Origin: Longimicrobiales bacterium
Lineage (GTDB): Bacteria > Gemmatimonadota > Gemmatimonadetes > Longimicrobiales > Gaopeijiaceae
Assembly (NCBI GenBank): GCA_965116905.1
Contig: OZ220732.1
Coordinates: 1,760,001-1,824,000, forward strand
DNA length: 64,000 bases
Direction: 5' to 3'
Shown here: positions 53,510-63,344 of the stretch, piece by piece
How the letters are laid out: every line of letters starts with the position of its first letter
Position numbering within the stretch: position 1 is the stretch's first letter
Position numbers and translations under genes: made by a program
The notes under the pieces: generated by a model
Told to the model about the DNA's origin: nothing
The model's input: the letters and a program-made list of their open reading frames with translations, nothing else
Databases searched by the model: none

Positions 53510-53601
53510 AACGGCCGGGGGCGCGCCGAGCGCCACCAGGGCAGGGGCGTCCGGGCACGCTGCAGGTGCCGTGTGGCTGTTAGTTTATATGTGGACGCCC
53601 C

Positions 53602-53880
53602 GTTGTGAGCAAGCCTGATTTCCGAACCGGGTCGGGGGCATGGTGGTCAGGTACGTTCATATGTCCGGCCTCTTGATGCGGCGCTCGTCGGCCGCGGGCC
53701 CGTATGGTTTTCGTGAGATCGGATCCAAATCAGTTTAACGGGCTCTCAGGCCCTCTAAACCAGGCTGGTTTTTCCGACCCCGTCTTGCTGACTGTTTGCC
53801 CTTACTCCGCTTCGTCCGTCCTGCCGCCCACGTCTCTCGGCAGCGTCTCTCTACTGTCGATTCCCCCCTTTCGGCGCCCC
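53602..53880 (-). ncRNA. Candidate bridge/seekRNA of the IS1111-type element (3' non-coding region)
   Basis: Stem GGGGUCGGA/UCCGAUCUC enclosing an internal loop that matches the AGTTTAG target; second stem-loop flanked by ACAUAUGAAC, matching the donor junction; boundaries approximate. Confidence 0.7.
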
Positions 53881-53882
53881 GT

Positions 53883-54100
53883 TCAGGCCGCAGCGCGAAC
53901 CCGGTAGACCTCCTTCCGCGTGGCCACCGCCCAGACCCGCCGCGCCGTCCGGTTGGCGAGCGCCACCGCGACCAGCTTCTTCGGCTTGCGCGCCAGCATG
54001 CCGGCCAGCCACGGGTCCGCGGCCTCGTCGCGCCGGCTCGCGTGCCGGATGACCGCCATGGCTCCCATGACCAGGAGCCGCCTCAGGTCGCGCTGGCCCA
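53883..54100 (-). pseudogene. IS110 transposase C-terminal fragment
   Basis: GQRDLRRLLVMGAMAV...VAVALANRTARRVWAV. Confidence 0.9.
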
Positions 54101-54555
54101 GCGGATCGGAAGTAGCCGAAATCCCGGCAGGAAATCGTCTAAAGTCATACAGGACTGCACGATCTGCGTTTCCTGCCGTAGTACTGGACCCTACTGGATC
54201 TTGCCACGAACGCGGGAACGCCGGACTTGAATGGCGGGAATCCCGCCCGAATCACTTCTTGATGGGCGACCATCGGGACGATAGCCTTGGCCTGGCACAT
54301 GTGAGGCTTCCTTGCGGGCGGTTAGGCCTGCCCATGCGGGTCTACGCCCTACGACTGGTGACGTCGGGCCAATACGGCCCCACCTGACCCCCTTTCGCTG
54401 GTCGGCGGTTGGAGAATGGCTCCGAATACGCCCATCAGAACGAAGCCGACGAGCTTTGCCATGGACGCACCCTCGTTTTGCACCTCGGGTGGACGCGCCG
54501 CAACCCCGGGCATAAACGGATTGCCCCCCGGCCCAGGGTTGCGGCATTCTCCTTC

Positions 54556-55119
54556 CTACCCCTCCCAAAGCACGAGCCAGAGCGCTTCATCCGGATGGTT
54601 GCGCGCATCCTCGCGAATCTCGTACCGGCGCGCCGAGTGGCAATACGGAACGCCGCAGGCCGCCCGCTGCCCCGACGCGTCCACGCTGGCTCCAGTCGCT
54701 TTGGGCGTTCTGTAGACGGAGAGGAGCCATCGGCCGCGGCGCGGCTGAAGGAGCCACGAGATGTCACCTCGGGCGACAGGCTCGCCGTTCTGGTGCAGTG
54801 CGGCGAACACGCTGACCCTCCCGTCTGCCGGCAGTTCGATCGGCGGCGAGCCCTGGTTCGCGCCGCTGAAATTGGACGCGTCGAGTATTCGCGTCTGCTC
54901 TCCGGCGACGAATACGTCGACGACGAGGCCGGCGAGGCCGGCGGAGTCGGTGAGCGAGGTGTTCACCGGCACACGCTCGCCCGACCCCACCGGCCATTCC
55001 ACCGTATAGGGGCGCGTTCTCTCCCAGCGGTCGCCGGCGTACACCTCGAGCTGCGCCGTGTCTTCCGGGGCGGTGCACGTCGCCGCCAGGGCACCGGCCA
55101 AGAGTGGTAGCGCGCGCAT
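54556..55119 (-). CDS. Hypothetical lipoprotein-like cargo protein
   Basis: MRALPLLAGALAATC signal with lipobox-like Cys; starts 1 bp after the upstream gene stop. Confidence 0.6.
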   Translation of the reverse strand: MRALPLLAGALAATCTAPEDTAQLEVYAGDRWERTRPYTVEWPVGSGERVPVNTSLTDSAGLAGLVVDVFVAGEQTRILDASNFSGANQGSPPIELPADGRVSVFAALHQNGEPVARGDISWLLQPRRGRWLLSVYRTPKATGASVDASGQRAACGVPYCHSARRYEIREDARNHPDEALWLVLWEG

Positions 55120-55120
55120 T

Positions 55121-56807
55121 TCAGTTGTTCCCCATGCTCTTGAGCCACGTCGAGCGGATGTCGTTCGCGTTCCAAGATGATGGTCGCGTGACTCTCACGC
55201 CAGACGGGGCGCTGATGCCGGGAAAGTGGTCGTCGTGCGCATCGTCGTCGACTTCTCCCTCCAAGCACCAAATGAAATCGGGAACAGAGTTCATCTGGCT
55301 GCTTGGTGTGCGGCACGTTCGAATGACCGTCATCACCTTGTCGGGATCCAGATCCGTCTTGTCGTCGCCCTCGTTGTTTTCATCGATCAGGTCCCACAGC
55401 GCTGCGGCGACGTTGCCTTCGATCTCCGCCGGCGCGCCGTCGTCGCGCTCCAACTTCGACCAGGTCTCCCAGCCGAAACGGTCGTCTGGCGATCCGATGT
55501 CGCCGCCGTAGTCGGCCAGACCTTCGGACATTGCGCAACTGTACGAGGACACCGAATCGGTGTAGTGGGGGTTGCAGTTCGACGTGCGCCAGATCCCCCC
55601 CAGCTCCTCTTCATGCAGGGCGTGGGTGAATTCGTGTGCGGATACCCAGGGCCGGTCGTAGTGGCCGCGGAACACGATCTCGTCGTCGTCGTCATCGTAG
55701 TAGCTGGCGGGCGGGGTCTCGTCGTCCTCGTTGAACTCGCGGAACCTGAACGTGCTCCGGCTCCTGTTGTAGCCGAAGTGGTCCTCGATCAGATCGATGG
55801 CATCGTCGTCGAGATAGCTCCACGGCAGGTAGAGCTGCCTCGCTCCCTCTACATTCTTCGTGCCGTCGCTGCAGTCGCTGTACCTGACCTGGAAGGAGGC
55901 GAGGCGGTGGCCGCCGTTGATGTCCGACGTGGTGGGGTTCTTCACGCTACCCCTGCCGACCTGCTCCGCGTAGCCCACGCAGGGCACGTTCAGGATCCCG
56001 CTGGAGGGCACCGTCCGAATCCAGGTGGAGATAAGCTGGCCCCGCTCGTAGTAGTCGACCCGCAGCTGCGCACCTTCCATCGCTACGTTGTCGCCGAACC
56101 GATCCTCGGTATAGGCGTAGAGCCTGAACGTGCCTGCGGAGGCCGTTGCGCTTGCCGCAGTGGTGACTCCTGTCGCCGCGGCGGCGCTGGCGCTCCCATT
56201 GATCCACGCCTCAAACGGTCCTGGCTGCGCGACGACCTCGGAAGGGAACACAGATTCGTCGAACACCCTGGTGACGAACCCGCCGCCGTCGATCACGTAC
56301 AGCCACGCCTCGTGAAGGACATCGTCGAACACGTAGGCGCTCTTGTAGCCACCGTCGGTGTCGGCGAAAGCGGTGATCTTGTAGTATCCCTTCTTGTCGA
56401 TCTCGCCGATTTCGACGATTTGTTTCCACTGCTCGCCACGCTCCATTTTCGGTAGCGTCCAGCTCTTGACCACGGGCGCCTTGCCGCCCGGGACGACGCC
56501 GTTCGCCATCGCGTTGAACGTAGGCAGCCTGACTTGCACTTCACCTCCGCTGATGTCCGCGACCGCTACGGCCTCGATGTGGACGGTGATCGGTGTACCC
56601 GGTGCCAACTCGCCGGTGACCTCGAAATCAACATCGAGGCGGGATTGATACTTCTCGGCGTTAGTGCCGTCGTCGGTCTCCTGTTGGTGCGCCGTGATCA
56701 TCGGCGCTGGATGTTCGGTGTGCTCTGCCCTAGGGGCAACCTGGATCGTCGGTGCAGGCGGCCATGAGCAGCACGCCCGCTGTCAGAAGGCATCTGTGGT
56801 GTCGCAT
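55121..56807 (-). pseudogene. Secreted HExxH zinc-metalloprotease-like lipoprotein, frameshifted after the signal peptide
   Basis: AAGGAG RBS + MRHHRCLLTAGVLLMAAC at 56807, stop at 56730; body ORF 55121-56701 (SAHEFTHALH...SEGLADY) is offset by 1 nt. Confidence 0.7.
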
Positions 56808-57001
56808 GGGATCTCTCCTTGCGTGTTTCCCTGTTTGCTTTCCGGTCGTCCGTTTGAAGCGCCCAGCGGGAGCTCCGCGGCTGATACGCCCATCGGTGGT
56901 GCCTCCTTCCAGTAGAGTTCAAGGATTGCCGCGCGACTCGTGTAGCCGTTCGCAGGGCGAGTGTTCGCACCAAAGCTGGCAACACGTATCCACCCTCACT
57001 A

Positions 57002-57060
57002 GAGGGAAAACCCTGTGATTTCGTGAGGGAAAACCCTGGACTTCATGAGGGAAAACACGG
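57002..57060. repeat. Three direct repeats GAGGGAAAACCCTG at 22-23-bp period
   Basis: Copies at 57002, 57025 and degenerate at 57047. Confidence 0.8.
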
Positions 57061-57529
57061 GGTTCGGGTGGGGGAATCCCTCTCACTCGGCCATGTCGTC
57101 GGACAGTTCCAGAGGGCTGCGAGGTGGCTGCGACGGGAGCAGATTCGTCCAAGTCGATGGCTTCGCAGTGTCCGCGAACTCCACGCCTGACTGGCTGATG
57201 GGAACCCGGACGGGGACGTTTGGGCGCGCCGCTGGTGGCAGTGTCCAGCGGCTCGCGTACCGCGCTGAACCTCCCGGAACGCAATGGGACTTGTAGGTAG
57301 TATCCGACAGGTTGACTTGCTGGCGAGCGGCTCTCCAGCGTTCGGGCATGGAGACGCCGAAGCAGTTGTTCGACACGCGGTGAACGTGTTCCCCAAGGGC
57401 CTCGCCTTCCCCGACGCCTTTCGTGACGAAGCTCTTGGACGGCTTGGGCCGGCGAGCTTGTCCGCGACTGCTCGATAGGCGTGGTTCCGGGCGATGTCCG
57501 GTGAGACGTTTTCGCGGGCGGTCCACGGG

Positions 57530-57570
57530 GCTGGCTTGGCCACGCTAAGGTGGACAAGCCAGCATACCCC
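57530..57570 (-). other. Putative oriT with ColE1-like nic site
   Basis: 14-bp IR 57530-57563 (1 mismatch); minus strand GTATGCTGG^CTTG vs ColE1 GTATACTGG^CTTA; upstream of mobC. Confidence 0.72.
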
Positions 57571-57653
57571 TTGGGGCCACACTCCGTGAGTCCCCTGCGG
57601 AGGCTGGCGGGAGGCTGCGCCCCCTCTGACCCCGCCAACGGAAACGGCGCGCC

Positions 57654-57992
57654 ATGAGCCGGGGACGCGCCGTTTGGGTGAGGGTGCGCGCCAGCGAGGC
57701 GGAGCGCGCCGAGTGGCACGCCAAGGCGCGCTCGGCAGGCCTCACGCTGTCGGATCTGGTGCGCCGGGCGGTCGGCCGGACGCACACGTGGACCGTGGCG
57801 CACGCCGAGGTCGAGCGCGAGCGCACCCGGCAGGTGGCGCGCGTCGGCAACAACCTCAACCAGATCGCTCGCTGGGCCAATGCCCACAAGGAGGGCGTCG
57901 AGGCCGTCGAGGTGATCGGCCACCTGATCGCCATCAGGCGGGCGCTCGGCGCCTTGGAGCCCGCCGAAGACCCGGACGCGGATGCACCTTAA
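57654..57992 (+). CDS. mobC: MobC/MbeC relaxosome accessory protein
   Basis: RHH-like N-terminus (VRVRAS...GLTLSDLVR); RVGNNLNQIARWAN MobC signature. Confidence 0.92.
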   Translation: MSRGRAVWVRVRASEAERAEWHAKARSAGLTLSDLVRRAVGRTHTWTVAHAEVERERTRQVARVGNNLNQIARWANAHKEGVEAVEVIGHLIAIRRALGALEPAEDPDADAP

Positions 57993-59547
57993 GTTCCTGG
58001 CGCACGGAACCGGATCGGCCCGCAAGGCGGCCAAGTACCTCCTCGGCGAGCTTGACGCGGCCGGGAAGCCGCGCGAAGGCGTCGAGGTGCTCAGGGGAGA
58101 TCCCCACCAGGTGGCCACCGTGGCCGATGCGCTTCCCTTCGAGCACAGGTACACGTCCGGCGTGATCGCGTGGGCGCCGGAGGATCAGCCGAGCGACGAG
58201 CAGATCGAGGCGGTCGTGGACGCCTTCGAGAAGACGGCCTGGGCGGGGCTGGACTTCGACCGCTACGCATGGACGGCGGTGCTGCACCGGGAGGAGGGCG
58301 GCGGTGCCCATGTCCACGTTCTGGCCGCGCGCTGCGACTTGGAGACCGGACGGAGCTTGAACATCGCCCCTCCGGGCTGGGAGAAGACCTTTGGCCCGCT
58401 CCGGGACGCCTTCAACCATGAACACGGCTGGGCTCGCCCGGACGATCCGGCGCGGGCGAGGGTGCAGCAGCCGGGCCACCGCGCCTACATCGAGGCGGCG
58501 CAACTGCGGGCGGGCCTCCGGCTCGAATCCTCCCCCCGCGACCTGATCCGCGACTACCTGCTCCAGCGCGTCGAGAACGGGACCGTGCGGAATCGCAACG
58601 AGGTCGTCGAGGCGCTACGCGAGGCGGGCCTTGAAGTGCCGCGCCAAGGCATGGACTACGTCACCGCGCTGGACCCGGCGACGGGGGACCGGTGGCGGCT
58701 GAAAGGAGAACTGTATGGAGAGAACTTCGACCGCGAACGATTTGACCGCCCGGCTCGGGAGGCGGCTGGAGACCGAACGCAGGGAGATCGAGGAGTTGAC
58801 CGCGAACGAGCTGGAGCGGCTCGGCGAGAACTCGCGGCGCGTCGCGAGGCGCGCGCTGCGTTCCATCGAGCGCGATACGGCGGAGGCGGTCGGGAAGATG
58901 CGCGAGTTGCTGGTCAAGGCGTGGATCCGGCCGCTGATCGTCGGCATGGCGCTCTGGCTCGGCATCTTCGTCGGAAGCTGGGCGACGATGCAGTGGTTGT
59001 CGAGGAGCGTTCAGGACCGGATCGAGGACATCGAACTGGCGAAGATCGAGATCGAGGGAGGGCGCGAGATGATCGCCGAGATCGAGGAGACGACCTGGGG
59101 CGTGGGGCTGCGGGAAGTGAACGGGGTGCGGTACGTGACGCTGCCGCGCGGCACGCCGGTCCTGACGGCCTTCGCCGTGGTCGGGCGGCCCTACGTCGAG
59201 CTGTCAAGAGAGTGAGGAGGCTGCATGACCGAATTGGAGAGGCAGTTGATGGAGGCCTTGAAGAGGTTGTCCGCGCAGTCCGAGACGGAACGGCGGCGGC
59301 AATCCGAGCAGGTCGAAGCCTTGCGGCGGCGCGTCGAGCGGCAAAGCGGGGAGAACGAAGCCTTGCAGCAGCGCGTCGAGCGGCTGAGCGAGGAGAACGA
59401 AGCCTTGCAGCAGCGAATCGAGCGGCTCGACGTGCTGGCGACACGCTTGGCCGAGTATTTCGGGACATCCGCCGTCGCGAGACCGCGCGGCCTCCGTATC
59501 TGATGCGGCGACCGGGACCGGATCGCGATCAGGGTCCGAGCCGCTGA
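57982..59547 (+). CDS. Relaxase, MbeA/MOB_P5-like
   Basis: YLLG motif I, VLRGDP, YTSGV motif II, HREEGGGAHVH (3H motif III), RLKGELY. Confidence 0.9.
   Translation: MHLKFLAHGTGSARKAAKYLLGELDAAGKPREGVEVLRGDPHQVATVADALPFEHRYTSGVIAWAPEDQPSDEQIEAVVDAFEKTAWAGLDFDRYAWTAVLHREEGGGAHVHVLAARCDLETGRSLNIAPPGWEKTFGPLRDAFNHEHGWARPDDPARARVQQPGHRAYIEAAQLRAGLRLESSPRDLIRDYLLQRVENGTVRNRNEVVEALREAGLEVPRQGMDYVTALDPATGDRWRLKGELYGENFDRERFDRPAREAAGDRTQGDRGVDRERAGAARRELAARREARAAFHRARYGGGGREDARVAGQGVDPAADRRHGALARHLRRKLGDDAVVVEERSGPDRGHRTGEDRDRGRARDDRRDRGDDLGRGAAGSERGAVRDAAARHAGPDGLRRGRAALRRAVKRVRRLHDRIGEAVDGGLEEVVRAVRDGTAAAIRAGRSLAAARRAAKRGERSLAAARRAAERGERSLAAANRAARRAGDTLGRVFRDIRRRETARPPYLMRRPGPDRDQGPSR
58715..59215 (+). 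CDS. mbeB: MbeB-like mobilization protein (nested in the relaxase gene, alternate frame)
   Basis: AGGAG RBS; coiled coil + TM helix + TWGV...RYVTLP, like ColE1 MbeB. Confidence 0.8.
   Translation: MERTSTANDLTARLGRRLETERREIEELTANELERLGENSRRVARRALRSIERDTAEAVGKMRELLVKAWIRPLIVGMALWLGIFVGSWATMQWLSRSVQDRIEDIELAKIEIEGGREMIAEIEETTWGVGLREVNGVRYVTLPRGTPVLTAFAVVGRPYVELSRE
59225..59503 (+). CDS. mbeD: MbeD/MobD-like coiled-coil protein (nested in the relaxase gene)
   Basis: GAGGAGG RBS; MTELERQLMEAL N-terminus and ENEALQQRVERL, typical of MbeD. Confidence 0.82.
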   Translation: MTELERQLMEALKRLSAQSETERRRQSEQVEALRRRVERQSGENEALQQRVERLSEENEALQQRIERLDVLATRLAEYFGTSAVARPRGLRI

Positions 59548-59651
59548 TGGCGTCCAGTCGCACAGCCGACCGCACGTCTAGCGGAGAAGCCATTCCGGCG
59601 CGAAGTTTGGGGCGCGCAGATCGTGCAGTCCATCGAGAGAGGAATCGAACG

Positions 59652-60812
59652 ATGGCACGCACGAAACGAAGTCGGCGCTCCTACGGCGCCGGCGAATGGG
59701 GCCGGAATCGGGTGAGGGTGTTTCCTGATCCCAAGACCGGCCGATACCAGATCGAGTGGCGAGAGAACGGGCGCAGGCTCACGAGGTCGCTCAAGCACCG
59801 TGACTGGTCGCGGGCCAAGAGGCAGGCGGACGAGGTTGCCGCTGGCCTCGCGGTCCACGAGCCCAACGGCAAGACCGAGGCCGAGCCCGAGCCACTCACG
59901 CTGACTACGCTTTTTGACATCTACGGGGAAGAGGTGACGCCCACCAAGGCGCATCGCACCCGGCGGCGGGACAGAGTCACAATGGCGATGTTCCTCAAGT
60001 TCTTCGGCAGGGACCGAAGGCCTGAAACCCTTTCCCAGCGGGACTGGGACCGCTTCATCCGAGAGCGTCGCGCGGGCAGGGTCGGCCCCAGTGGGAAGCC
60101 TGTGGGCGACCGGATGATCGAATGGGACCTGACGTTCCTGATGGCAGTGCTGAACTGGGCGGCGAGGTCGAAGGACGAGCACGGGCGCCCGCTCCTCGAA
60201 CGGAACCCGCTGAGGGGTCTCAGGAAGCCCAGGGAGAAGAACCCGACCCGCGTTGTTCTCACGGAAGAGGAATACCAAGCGCTTCTCCGGGTGTCGCGGC
60301 AGGTCGGCTGGCGATTCCACGTCGCTCTCGTGCTCGCCCACGAGACCGGGCATCGGATCGGCGCGATTCGCAACCTCCGGTGGGCGGATATCGACATCGA
60401 GGGAAGGACCATCCGGTGGCGCGCCGAACACGAGAAGAATGGGTACGAGCACCGAACGCCGCTGACCGACGAGGCCCTCGCTGTCTTGCAGGAGGCGTGC
60501 AGGATGGGTGCCGGGACTGGAAATGCCCCAGTGCTTCCTTCGTCAAGGGATGCTACGCGGTGCATTCACCGCGTTTCCGCATACCAGTGGTGGAGGAAGG
60601 CGCAGACGCTCGCGGGATTGGAGCCGAAAGCGCGACGGGGTTGGCACTCGCTGAGGCGCAAGTTCGCCAGCGACCTGATGGATCAGCCGCTGAAGGTGCT
60701 CTGCGAACTTGGAGGCTGGAAGGCGGCCAAGACCGTTCTCCGCTGCTACCAGCAACCGGACGAAGCGCAACTCCGGCAGGCGATCCTGAGCCGCCGCAGG
60801 CCGCGGGGGTGA
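59652..60812 (+). CDS. Tyrosine recombinase/integrase
   Basis: TGHRIGAI (R), HEKNG (K), HSLRR (HxxR), LGGW, LRCY (Y); basic N-terminal arm-binding-like domain. Confidence 0.92.
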   Translation: MARTKRSRRSYGAGEWGRNRVRVFPDPKTGRYQIEWRENGRRLTRSLKHRDWSRAKRQADEVAAGLAVHEPNGKTEAEPEPLTLTTLFDIYGEEVTPTKAHRTRRRDRVTMAMFLKFFGRDRRPETLSQRDWDRFIRERRAGRVGPSGKPVGDRMIEWDLTFLMAVLNWAARSKDEHGRPLLERNPLRGLRKPREKNPTRVVLTEEEYQALLRVSRQVGWRFHVALVLAHETGHRIGAIRNLRWADIDIEGRTIRWRAEHEKNGYEHRTPLTDEALAVLQEACRMGAGTGNAPVLPSSRDATRCIHRVSAYQWWRKAQTLAGLEPKARRGWHSLRRKFASDLMDQPLKVLCELGGWKAAKTVLRCYQQPDEAQLRQAILSRRRPRG

Positions 60813-60906
60813 AATCCGAATCGGCGGGAATCAAACAGCGGGAACTCGCACGCCGAATCCCGTAACGTCAATGGTCACAAACAGATCCGCACGGGATAGA
60901 GCATGA

Positions 60907-61718
60907 TGGCCCATCTTCGATATCCTGCCCAGCCTCGGCTTGCCTCCGGTCGTGTGTTGCCGGGGCACGAGACCGAGCCAGGCCGAGAAGTCGCGCCCGC
61001 GCCGGAAGCTCTCCATCGGCGGCGCGAAGGCCTGGATGGCCATGGCGGTGACCGGCCCGATGCCCGGGATCGTCATCAGCCGCGTCGTCTCCTCACTCTC
61101 CCGGGCGCTCGTCCGGATCTCCCGGTCGAGTCCGCCGATCTTCTCGTCGAGTTCCTCGATCCGCCCGAGAAGCACCGAGCCCAGCTCGACGACCGCCTCC
61201 GGCAGGCCACAGTCCCCGTCCTCGATCACCTCAGCCAGCTGCGCGATCCGGGCCCTGCCCTGCGGCGCCACCACGCCGTACTCGGCCAGGTGGCCCCGAA
61301 GCGCGTTGATCGTCTGCGTGCGCTGGCGCACCAGCAGGTCGCGCGTGTGAAAGCGCATCGCCCGCGCCTGCTGGGCTTCCGACTTGACCGCCACGAAGTG
61401 CATGGTCGGTCGCTGCGCCGCCTCCGTGATCGCCTCCGCGTCGGCCGCGTCGTTCTTGCTTCGCTTGACGAACGGCTTCACGTAGATCGGGGGAACCAGC
61501 CTCACCTCGTGGCCGAGCGCCAGGGTCTCCCGGCCCCAGTAGTGGGCGCTGGCGCACGCCTCCATCGCCACCGTACACGGCGGCTGCGATGCAAGAAAGC
61601 CCAGCAACTTCCCGCGGCTCAGCTTCTTGCGGTATGCCACCGACCCGTCCGCCCGGGCCCCGTGCACCTGAAAGCTGCGTTTTGCCAGATCGATCCCGAT
61701 GATGGTAACCTCTTCCAT
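60907..61718 (-). pseudogene. IS110 transposase N-terminal fragment (DEDD domain); reads through into the insert to a stop at 60831
   Basis: GIDLAK, MEAC, KNDAADA, TIPGIGP, WLGLVPRQ; homology ends at ISKMG. Confidence 0.92.
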
Positions 61719-61943
61719 GTGGATGCCTCCTCCCTGTGATGGTCAGACCTCTCAAGGTCGCAATCGCTTCAGTACCATCCTTGGCACATTGCGATGCCGC
61801 CGGGAGGGGGCGTCCACTCCATCAGTTTAGCGCGTAAGCTGAACCATGAGCAGGACACCGCCGGGGGATAGGCTACATATGGGGGGGATAGGCTACGTAT
61901 TGGTGCCGTTTGCGGCGGACTGTGGGAAACGGTTTTCCTTGGA

Positions 61944-63344
61944 CTAGCGCCCGGCCCCCAACGCCTGCGCCAGAAAGGCCACCGCCCGGGGAATGGCTGC
62001 GCGGAGATCAAACACGTCGTGGCCGGCCCCCTCATAAATGTACGCCTCGAACTCGGGCGGGCCCCGCCCCAGGGCCTCCATCGCCGCCATGAGCGCCTCG
62101 GCCTGGGAGACCGAGACCGTCTGGTCGAAGGAACCGTGATGAAGCTGCACCGAGGGCAGGTCCAGCGCGAAGAGGGTGGAGGAGCGCCGCACCAGCTCCA
62201 GTCGCATGTCCCCGCGGGAGTACTCGCCGCGTATGTGGGGCTGGATGAAGGTCGAGTCGAGGTGGGCGACCCCGGTAAGTTCACGCGGCGTGCGCAGGGC
62301 CGCCTCGCGCACGATCTCGCGCACCCAGTCGTCGAAGAAGTACGTCGGGCCGAAGAACGCGACGATCCGTGCGATCCGCGTGTCCCGCACCCCTGCCAGA
62401 AGGGCGACCCCCGCGCCCCGGCTGCCCCCGAAGACGTTGATCGAGTCGGCCTTCGCCTCGGGCGTGGTCTCGATGGCCACGTTCACCAGGGCCAGAAAGT
62501 CGTCCACGTCTTGGTCCCACGGGCTGGGTGGGCCCTCGGAGATCCACACGCTGTCGCCGTGAACGAGTGGCTCGGCCCGAAACGACGGGATCACGTACAC
62601 GAAGCTGTCGCGCAACTCGCCGAGCGCGAACGCCGCAATCTGCACGTCGCCGATCGACACGCCACCGTCTCCGCCGTGCAGGTAGGCCAGGACCGGCAGG
62701 CTTCCCTCGGGCGCGCCGTCGGGCACCAGGATGGCGCCGTAGTGGCGCACCCCGGCGACGCTGTGGGAGACGACGCGGAGATCGACTTCGGAGCCCGCCA
62801 GATCGAGCCGTTCGGCCAGCTCCACCCGCACCTCCGCCGCGGAGACGTCGCGTGCGGCCCAGTCGGCGCGCACGGCGTCGATCTCGGCGTCGGTCGGGGC
62901 CATGAAGAGGGTATCGAGTTCCGCCTCGAGGTCGAGAGCGACCGCCGTCACCGTGGTCGTGGCACTGGCCGCGGTGACCGTGATGGTGTGTTGCCCCGGA
63001 TCCGGCCCGAGGGTCCAGCTCGTGGCGGCCGTCCCGTCGCTGCCGGTGGTGGCCGAGGCGGGGTCGGCAGAACCCTGGCCCGCGGCGGGTGCAAACGTGA
63101 CCGCCTGGCCCGACATCGGCTGGCCCTGGGCGTCCAGAACGCGGACCACGATCGCGTCGGCGAGGGACAGCCCCTGCACGGTGCGCTGGTCGGCTCCCGA
63201 GAGGGTCTGGACGGTGGTGGGGGTGGGGGGTGCGGGTGGCTCGACGGGCGGTTCGACAGGTGGCCCGAGGGATTCGCTGCAGGCGGTGAGCGAAATGGCG
63301 GCCAGGAAAGCGACGAATGCGATGGGCCGAAGTCGTGGAGACAT
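61944..63344 (-). CDS. Lipoprotein with Ig-like (Big_1) domain and alpha/beta-hydrolase domain
   Basis: Lipobox LTAC; GQPMSGQAVTF...WTLG; HGG, GGSRG, HGSFD, GAGH. Confidence 0.82.
   Translation of the reverse strand: MSPRLRPIAFVAFLAAISLTACSESLGPPVEPPVEPPAPPTPTTVQTLSGADQRTVQGLSLADAIVVRVLDAQGQPMSGQAVTFAPAAGQGSADPASATTGSDGTAATSWTLGPDPGQHTITVTAASATTTVTAVALDLEAELDTLFMAPTDAEIDAVRADWAARDVSAAEVRVELAERLDLAGSEVDLRVVSHSVAGVRHYGAILVPDGAPEGSLPVLAYLHGGDGGVSIGDVQIAAFALGELRDSFVYVIPSFRAEPLVHGDSVWISEGPPSPWDQDVDDFLALVNVAIETTPEAKADSINVFGGSRGAGVALLAGVRDTRIARIVAFFGPTYFFDDWVREIVREAALRTPRELTGVAHLDSTFIQPHIRGEYSRGDMRLELVRRSSTLFALDLPSVQLHHGSFDQTVSVSQAEALMAAMEALGRGPPEFEAYIYEGAGHDVFDLRAAIPRAVAFLAQALGAGR

Follow-up and report, generated by a model that had tools for sequence, protein, structure and literature searches.

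Heterobivalent tyrosine integrases of the mv4 and lambda type recombine across a 7-bp overlap that is identical between the two partners and free in sequence, and mv4 Int accepts any 7-bp overlap in vitro if attP and attB match (10.1101/2023.11.06.565760). Here we analyze a 64,000-nucleotide stretch of DNA from the genome of a Longimicrobiales bacterium (the window; genome G000), in which an element with an integrase of this kind sits inside the gene of an IS110 bridge recombinase; all coordinates are window positions. The insert is probably a lambda-type integrative mobilizable element (IME) that enters DNA at matches to its own core and short flanks, with the K-M-G-Q codons of IS110 genes among its best sites. 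Like mv4 and lambda, its family has degenerate core-binding flanks, a predicted arm-binding domain and lambda Int (1z1b) as top structural match. The described systems have a single main site in the chromosome, and their cores were changed in the laboratory. The present family is a natural one: its 28 paired elements show 19 cores, one core finds about 47 eligible sites per genome, and a genome can hold up to dozens of copies.

Other described elements share single features with this locus. IME_oriT and the IMEs found in genes of integrative and conjugative elements are likewise mobilizable elements with a tyrosine integrase, inserted at conserved sites within other mobile elements, but they are described as site-specific for one target, and here the sites are many and the host is an IS110 insertion sequence (IS) (PMC5704250). 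The HE-PICIs (PICI, phage-inducible chromosomal island) also disrupt a gene of another mobile element and bring no replacement sequence; their site groups are monophyletic by integrase and their excision serves the satellite, whereas here the integrases are polyphyletic and no benefit from the IS is shown (PMC10111431). One PICI, EcCIDi14, is stated to lie in an IS110 transposase gene, a likeness drawn from the stated host gene and not from a compared insertion site (PMC10111431). Tn916/Tn1549, Tn5520 and MTnPi are multi-copy, use many sites per genome and have a single arm-binding tyrosine integrase (PMC5704250, PMC8138268), but these elements prefer AT-rich targets (PMC8138268), whereas the cores here are GC-rich and identical at both ends. 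The group II intron RmInt1 in ISRm2011-2 similarly uses a multi-copy IS as landing site, and differs by RNA-based retrohoming to one cognate site in place of DNA recombination. The IS itself resembles the IS1111 group of the IS110 family in its RuvC DEDD and Tnp domains, subterminal inverted repeats and flank-matching target loop; it differs in that its gene is split 13 codons past the nucleophile position, which is Thr here (PMC11208158). In the open-access full text, we found no description of this integrase family or of this IS110 hot spot. The recombination chemistry is not new, and EcCIDi14 offers a brief earlier example of an island within an IS110 gene.

At the locus, the 7-mer TGGCCCA is present twice, as left core (54094..54100, plus strand) and right core (60907..60913, plus strand); the repeat extends in neither direction, and the insert between the copies measures 6,813 bp. 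Deleting the insert in silico joins 53883-54093 to 60907-61718 and yields 1,023 nt, comprising 340 codons and a stop with no internal stops. An earlier note on this DNA had proposed exactly such an insert, flanked by TGGCCCA in a restorable 340-aa IS110 open reading frame (ORF), and the sequence confirms it. The 5' part of the split gene (codons 1-270; 60907..61718, minus strand) holds D10, E53, D90 and D93 and matches the profiles DEDD_Tnp_IS110, Transposase_20 and NF033542. The 3' part (Q271 to stop; 53883..54100, minus strand) shares 77-93% DNA identity with the matching part in 16 other copies. With both a DEDD RuvC domain and a Tnp domain, the split gene belongs to the IS110 family. Codon 257 (60948-60950) encodes a threonine that aligns with the catalytic Ser241 of IS621, and because intact multi-copy relatives likewise read H-T-T-G at this position, threonine may serve as nucleophile in this IS110 family. 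Among the 24 contig pieces listed of 1,770, none spans either junction; what supports the assembly is that other assemblies show this junction structure too.

Comparison of element ends places the 7-bp repeat beyond chance. For 39 of 84 integrase right ends a left end lay within 45 kb, and 28 of these 39 could be paired, all 28 with an identical 7-mer at fixed offsets: the left core stands 26 nt before a conserved AATC in the 28 paired relatives, and the right core 68-69 nt past the last GCGGGA box. Shuffled pairings gave identical 7-mers in 2.2 cases on average and 8 at most. This fits the ~7-bp lambda-type overlap that the earlier note had claimed. The pair set omits the other G000 paralogues, three of which have identical cores, one a single mismatch and one no partner. 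The 28 paired elements carry 19 different 7-mers, and outside the core the constraint is limited to about three bases per side (H-R-H-[7 bp]-N-C-D): every pair has a purine at -2 and C at +2, G is absent at -1 and -3, and C is absent at +3. Two identical integrases (L094 in G068 and L093 in G054) with core CGCCTCG occupy unrelated sites that share just the core and the flank pattern, and three non-IS targets (L131, L132, L134) exist empty in G000 and fit that pattern. The family members use their own 7-mer plus short flanks, and the IS110 landings are not chance. Homologues at unrelated sites with variable 7-mers, which the earlier note had named as the mark of a chance hit by a low-specificity integrase, were partly found, but the chance reading fails, as each element needs its own 7-mer and flanks. 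Tn916 leaves unmatched coupling sequences; neither these nor AT-rich targets were seen here, the cores being GC-rich. Mismatch tolerance of the Tn916 kind had seemed to appear at mobC junctions and was dismissed, since it came from mis-pairing of different elements and the true pairs match.

Eleven assemblies have an insertion at this very base of IS110, and both orientations are represented, which bears out the repeated K-M-G-Q insertion that the earlier note had asked to look for. Both junctions are read in G000, G009, G067 and G068, with inserts of 6.8, 6.1, 30.4 and 10.2 kb, and one junction in G002, G006, G024, G046, L214, L231 and L244, the last three being later-found records not matched to a genome handle. 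For G006 the left junction alone is counted, because its N-part runs into unrelated sequence; a distant C-part in G002 (L040) was set aside, as no element end adjoins it. In G067 and G068 the inserts lie in the opposite orientation and the core reads TGGGCCA at both ends, the coding parts of the split IS match intact copies elsewhere in the respective genome at 100% identity, and the IS hosts differ from that of the window by 4-20%. Judged from these sequences, the insertions at the IS110 site are independent, because of the opposite orientation, the identity of split copies to local intact copies and the divergence of the IS hosts.

These observations bear on a further explanation, in which a single old composite of IS110 and island was passed on by descent or transposed whole, or in which the assembly of the locus is wrong. 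The absence of a listed contig across either junction would suit it, as would the shared orientation and 95.9% IS identity of G000 and G002. It is contradicted by the use of both orientations, by the range of insert sizes, by G000 and G002 integrases that are just 75.5% identical, by split copies that match local intact copies, and by the rejection of a single clade (below). We regard this explanation as highly improbable, and its inheritance part is, on the sequence comparison, already refuted.

We controlled for search bias with a right-end pattern that contains no IS110 letters. It gave 37 matches in GTDB genomes, the window genome left out, and one in metagenomes. Seven of the 38 ends lie at the IS110 site, three in mobC, two in a sibling integrase and 26 elsewhere, with three of those sites used twice. 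The IS110 site is thus the commonest single target, while 31 ends lie at other sites; a looser earlier pattern within the genus placed 4 of 24 there, window counted. No single main attB emerges: the 38 ends spread over many sites, and the 53 genomes together contain 2,497 matches to H-R-H-TGGCCCA-N-C-D, about 47 per genome. The closest homologue (89% identity, G054) sits at a non-IS site whose empty form is present in G000. The proposal that a conserved IS110 motif is the attB of this element is therefore not upheld, given the 31 ends elsewhere, the non-IS site of the closest homologue, the scatter of the integrases in the tree and the 19 different 7-mers. The insertion is real and recurrent and better supported than a chance hit; it is best read as lying at a hot spot of a multi-site, core-steered element, and not as the work of a dedicated IS110 parasite.

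The integrase phylogeny speaks to the same question. The larger tree comprises 64 of the 84 ends (near-full-length and anchored), with one row (G013 L154) bearing a mis-anchored core label. Elements with a TGG-N-CCA core group together in it (17 rows; SH-aLRT 96 in the quick tree and a weaker 76/91 in the careful tree). The four full-sequence IS110-inserted integrases are scattered among non-IS relatives, and a single clade of them is rejected (p-AU 1.4e-6, 22-row tree), which, together with the 31 of 38 ends elsewhere, eliminated a dedicated IS110 lineage. In this the element departs from dedicated targeting of mobile elements of the IME_oriT or HE-PICI type, where an integrase clade keeps to one site of the host element. 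The clade might still have become adapted to IS110 and to its own mobC as landing pads, with the TGG[GC]CCA core fixed by cycling through mobile DNA and other sites secondary. The high rank of IS110, mobC and the family's own integrase among the 38 ends is in keeping with this, as are the occupation of about 8 of about 39 suitable IS110 copies, the grouping of the TGG[GC]CCA elements and the concentration of other lineages on an oriT-like motif (18 of 64 rows). Yet 26 of the 38 ends lie outside all three targets, several of them in genes that G000 also has, at 85-90% identity; the IS110-inserted integrases form no clade; the IS110-rich genomes G051, G054 and G065 hold clade members at other sites; and a lineage with a different core enters the same IS family at codon 212-213 (G047, G043). 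We consider such landing-pad specialization unlikely.

Two of these targets merit description in their own right. The codon 212-213 site is a second hot spot in IS110, occupied by the lineage with core CGCGCCG at L030 (G047:C38) and L193 (G043:C40). The oriT-like target is a GCTGGC motif that adjoins 18 of the 64 tree rows (among them L003, L080, L082, L083, L084, L087, L089 and L158) and resembles the probable oriT of the window element, so that a motif of the window is the target of other lineages in the same family; mobC lies on the flank in 3 of 8 tested. Insertions at this motif resemble IME_oriT.

How strongly IS110 is preferred depends on what other sites tolerate. About 37 IS110 copies with the matching codons are listed, six of them occupied, with two more occupied from the other side; the codon pattern used for counting does not catch every copy. 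Of 31 elements whose core is TGG[GC]CCA, seven sit in IS110, where 1.6% or so would be expected (about 39 of 2,497 sites). With a weight matrix trained on 37 half-sites outside IS110, the IS110 site comes 4th among the 783 TGGCCCA sites of G000, and the site is thus intrinsically good as well as multi-copy, and probably harmless. Alternatively, there may be no preference beyond the minimal motif, and IS110 may dominate as insertions in host genes are purged by selection. If 10% of host sites tolerate insertion, 7 of 31 would be unremarkable (P 0.12); but many of the insertions that persist are in genes also present in G000, and the matrix trained without IS110 puts the IS110 site in the top 1%. 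Purging as the sole cause seems to us quite unlikely.

Several points weigh against core-steered insertion with IS110 as one of the best sites. If all sites were equal, 7 of 31 in IS110 would have a P of 4e-7, and P is still 0.025 if 15% of host sites tolerate insertion (all these values are approximate, the 31 elements coming partly from outside the 53 genomes). Because 7 of 31 is so far above the eligible-site share even at that tolerance, a further factor favoring IS110 besides site quality is possible. The weight matrix is built on few, partly related sites. Eleven of the 39 right ends for which a left end lay near enough are unpaired, with 4-7 mismatches; these are attributed to nesting or mis-anchoring, verified for G013 only, which has TGGCCAG at both ends. 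Genomes alone cannot separate a carried core from a 7-bp target duplication without one. No circle joint occurs among the 15 joints listed of 20, and no excisionase gene was recognized in the insert, very small ORFs not having been searched.

On core-steered insertion, the element would excise as a circle with one core and integrate where a target core matches, by analogy with lambda-type chemistry and mv4 Int. Overuse of IS110 would follow from a site that scores near the top, comes in several copies and has zero host cost, and cores would drift through rare mismatched insertions. Precise excision would restore the IS110 ORF exactly, and the earlier suggestion that excision switches the recombinase back on stands as far as the restored ORF goes, while the circle joint that it calls for is missing from the joints listed. 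In run X1, contigs unique to the insert have a read depth of about 50 and the flanks one of 67-79, and joints of the uninterrupted form of the IS occur in runs X2 and X3. Neither observation is a sign of excision here, because the IS depth of about 700 stems from other copies and strains.

A candidate for control of the integrase emerged from the element ends. The left end holds a conserved hairpin (54120..54180, plus strand) whose loop box (54152-54168) is complementary to a box in the integrase leader (59615..59660, plus strand), located just before the integrase ribosome site and predicted to fold over the start codon. Of 27 paired elements that have the box, 26 are complementary between loop and leader, where 401 of 416 positions are Watson-Crick, 14 are G-U and one is a mismatch; the G-U cases arise from three substitution types only, and there is one compensatory change. 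For this predicted fold the median unpaired probability across 63 elements is 0.16, and 0.40 with the box blocked, with a rise above 0.3 in 14. In circle order the hairpin would be downstream of the integrase gene, which suggests, on these fold models, that hairpin-leader pairing would start integrase translation in the circle. A sigma-70 promoter scan of 59300-62000 gave no candidates. Joined to the core comparison, this leads to a wider and tentative possibility, which we would not yet favor: that the 7-bp core acts as a DNA guide, that lineages are re-aimed through it, and that the TGGCCCA clade lives mostly off IS110 and mobC under a circle-only RNA switch. The protein would then read about three bases per side, the re-aimed targets would be IS110, the mob and integrase genes of siblings, oriT and tRNA sites, and the switch, a left-end hairpin able to pair with the integrase leader only once both ends are joined, would allow integrase translation in the circle and hold the split IS110 silent while the element is chromosomal.

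Both ends of the IS around the insert can be placed. End alignment with 16 other copies sets its span at 53588-61824, that is 8,237 bp with the insert and 1,424 bp without, in agreement with the ~1.42 kb given before; a related contig without the IS (run X3) joins 53587 to 61839 with 14 letters in between. The limits of 53582-61829 proposed earlier are corrected accordingly. The right end (53588..53882, minus strand) is non-coding, aligns with intact relatives and holds a predicted bridge-RNA target loop and a subterminal inverted repeat; the left end (61719..61824, minus strand), also placed by end alignment, holds the other. This ~300-nt non-coding region 3' of the gene and the subterminal inverted repeats assign the IS to the IS1111 group, and the inverted repeats stand 3 nt and 7 nt from the ends, which we take to be the rule expected for that group. 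Two variable target-loop segments co-vary with the flanks in 17 copies (by inspection), as in a guide loop, and because those of the window copy fit its own flanks, the non-coding part looks intact, consistent with the earlier view that IS ends and non-coding RNA are undamaged. The bridge-RNA region 53588-53882 has no Rfam match and a fold z of -1.5, and no tRNA or Rfam element was found in the region. A 79-bp extra segment in an IS110 of G041 proved to be an internal duplication-like insert and not an element end.

The earlier note also held that the whole 8.2-kb unit could be moved in trans. G000 has no second IS110-family gene by blastn, tblastn or PF02371, all three of which came back empty and excluded an intact helper. 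G067 and G068, which have identical intact helpers, show one split copy each, and no split IS110 was seen twice in any genome examined. Movement in trans thus finds no backing, and the window IS is predicted to be inert until excision restores its gene, since no other IS110 recombinase gene was found in G000. Separately, some IS110 copies have entered the right end of another copy, within its target-loop region (L049 in G056 and runs X1 and X2; joint 53731 to 53588), which suggests self-targeting by the guide. The reverse nesting, an IS110 copy within the right-end arm boxes of an integrase element, is seen at L016/L053 (G060) and L026 (G009).

The insert comprises two cargo ORFs, a ColE1-type mobC / mbeA / mbeD module and a 386-aa tyrosine integrase, matching the earlier prediction of an integrase and a mob module (PF00589, PF21983, PF05713, PF03432, PF04899). 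The integrase (59652..60812, plus strand; PF00589) carries R235, K262, H332, R335, W356 and Y366, the catalytic set, invariant in 26 aligned sequences. Its match to lambda Int is full-length at 16% structural identity, and residues 21-63 are predicted to form three strands and a helix, arm-binding-like, at pLDDT about 73; the model is alignment-based, the single-sequence fold being poor (pLDDT 44). Two GCGGGA boxes at the left end (54212..54242, plus strand) and two at the right end (60824..60843, plus strand), conserved in relatives, are predicted arm-type integrase sites.

Upstream of the integrase lie the mob genes, all on the plus strand: mobC, a NikA-like relaxosome protein (57654..57992; PF21983, PF05713), and an MbeA-like relaxase (57982..59547; PF03432, with NF047848 at E 1e-26, below its cut-off), overlapped by an mbeB-like ORF (58715-59215, named by position only) and an mbeD ORF (59225-59503; PF04899). 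The probable oriT (57545..57580), placed by its position upstream of mobC, is presumably comparable to the ColE1 nic site. Having a relaxase and accessory mob genes and no mating-pair system of its own, the insert is a mobilizable element; no conjugation helper was found in G000 (97% complete) with the families PF02534 and PF03135, since both are unmatched there. The cargo lies on the minus strand. One ORF (54556..55119, 187 aa) has a lipoprotein-like N-terminus and no family match. The other (55121..56701, 526 aa), also lacking a family match, has an HEXXH motif and is a possible metallopeptidase; its best Atlas match is an unnamed Gemmatimonadota cluster (score 0.94), and weak Atlas leads point to mycolysin-like clusters (14-18% of members). 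Short, iteron-like direct repeats GAGGGAAAAC (57002..57076) are shared with two other G000 loci.

The integrase family has expanded widely in the genus. G000 contains five further near-full-length integrase paralogues at E below 1e-100, plus broken copies, and the paralogues have in common only the left end, the mob module and the integrase. Within the genus, 44 of 53 genomes contain integrase matches at the same threshold, as many as 36 scored ones in a single genome. Of the 37 named records with the same element end, 33 are titled Gemmatimonadota, Longimicrobiales or Candidatus Palauibacter. The end also occurs in three Gammaproteobacteria-binned contigs and one Acidobacteria-binned contig (L218, L223, L241, L251), either through inter-phylum transfer or through mis-binning. 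Deep nesting was observed at G000:C1 (about 3,481,000-3,580,000), L036 and L004, where elements lie inside sibling relaxase and integrase genes and element ends fall within the anticodon loops of tRNA-Val and tRNA-Pro. At L005 and L073, two elements sit at the 5' end of one gene type reading S-V-N-K-I-I-L-V-G-N, which we take to be ssb-like.

Taken together, a bridge-recombinase gene is a recurrent landing site for another mobile element, with roughly one in five suitable IS110 copies in the genus broken at the same base. The integrase family involved is an expanded one, and a 7-bp core with minimal flanks seems to determine where its members insert. Change of integrase target thereby becomes testable on a natural series, and such an integrase may be re-aimed by altering seven bases of attP.

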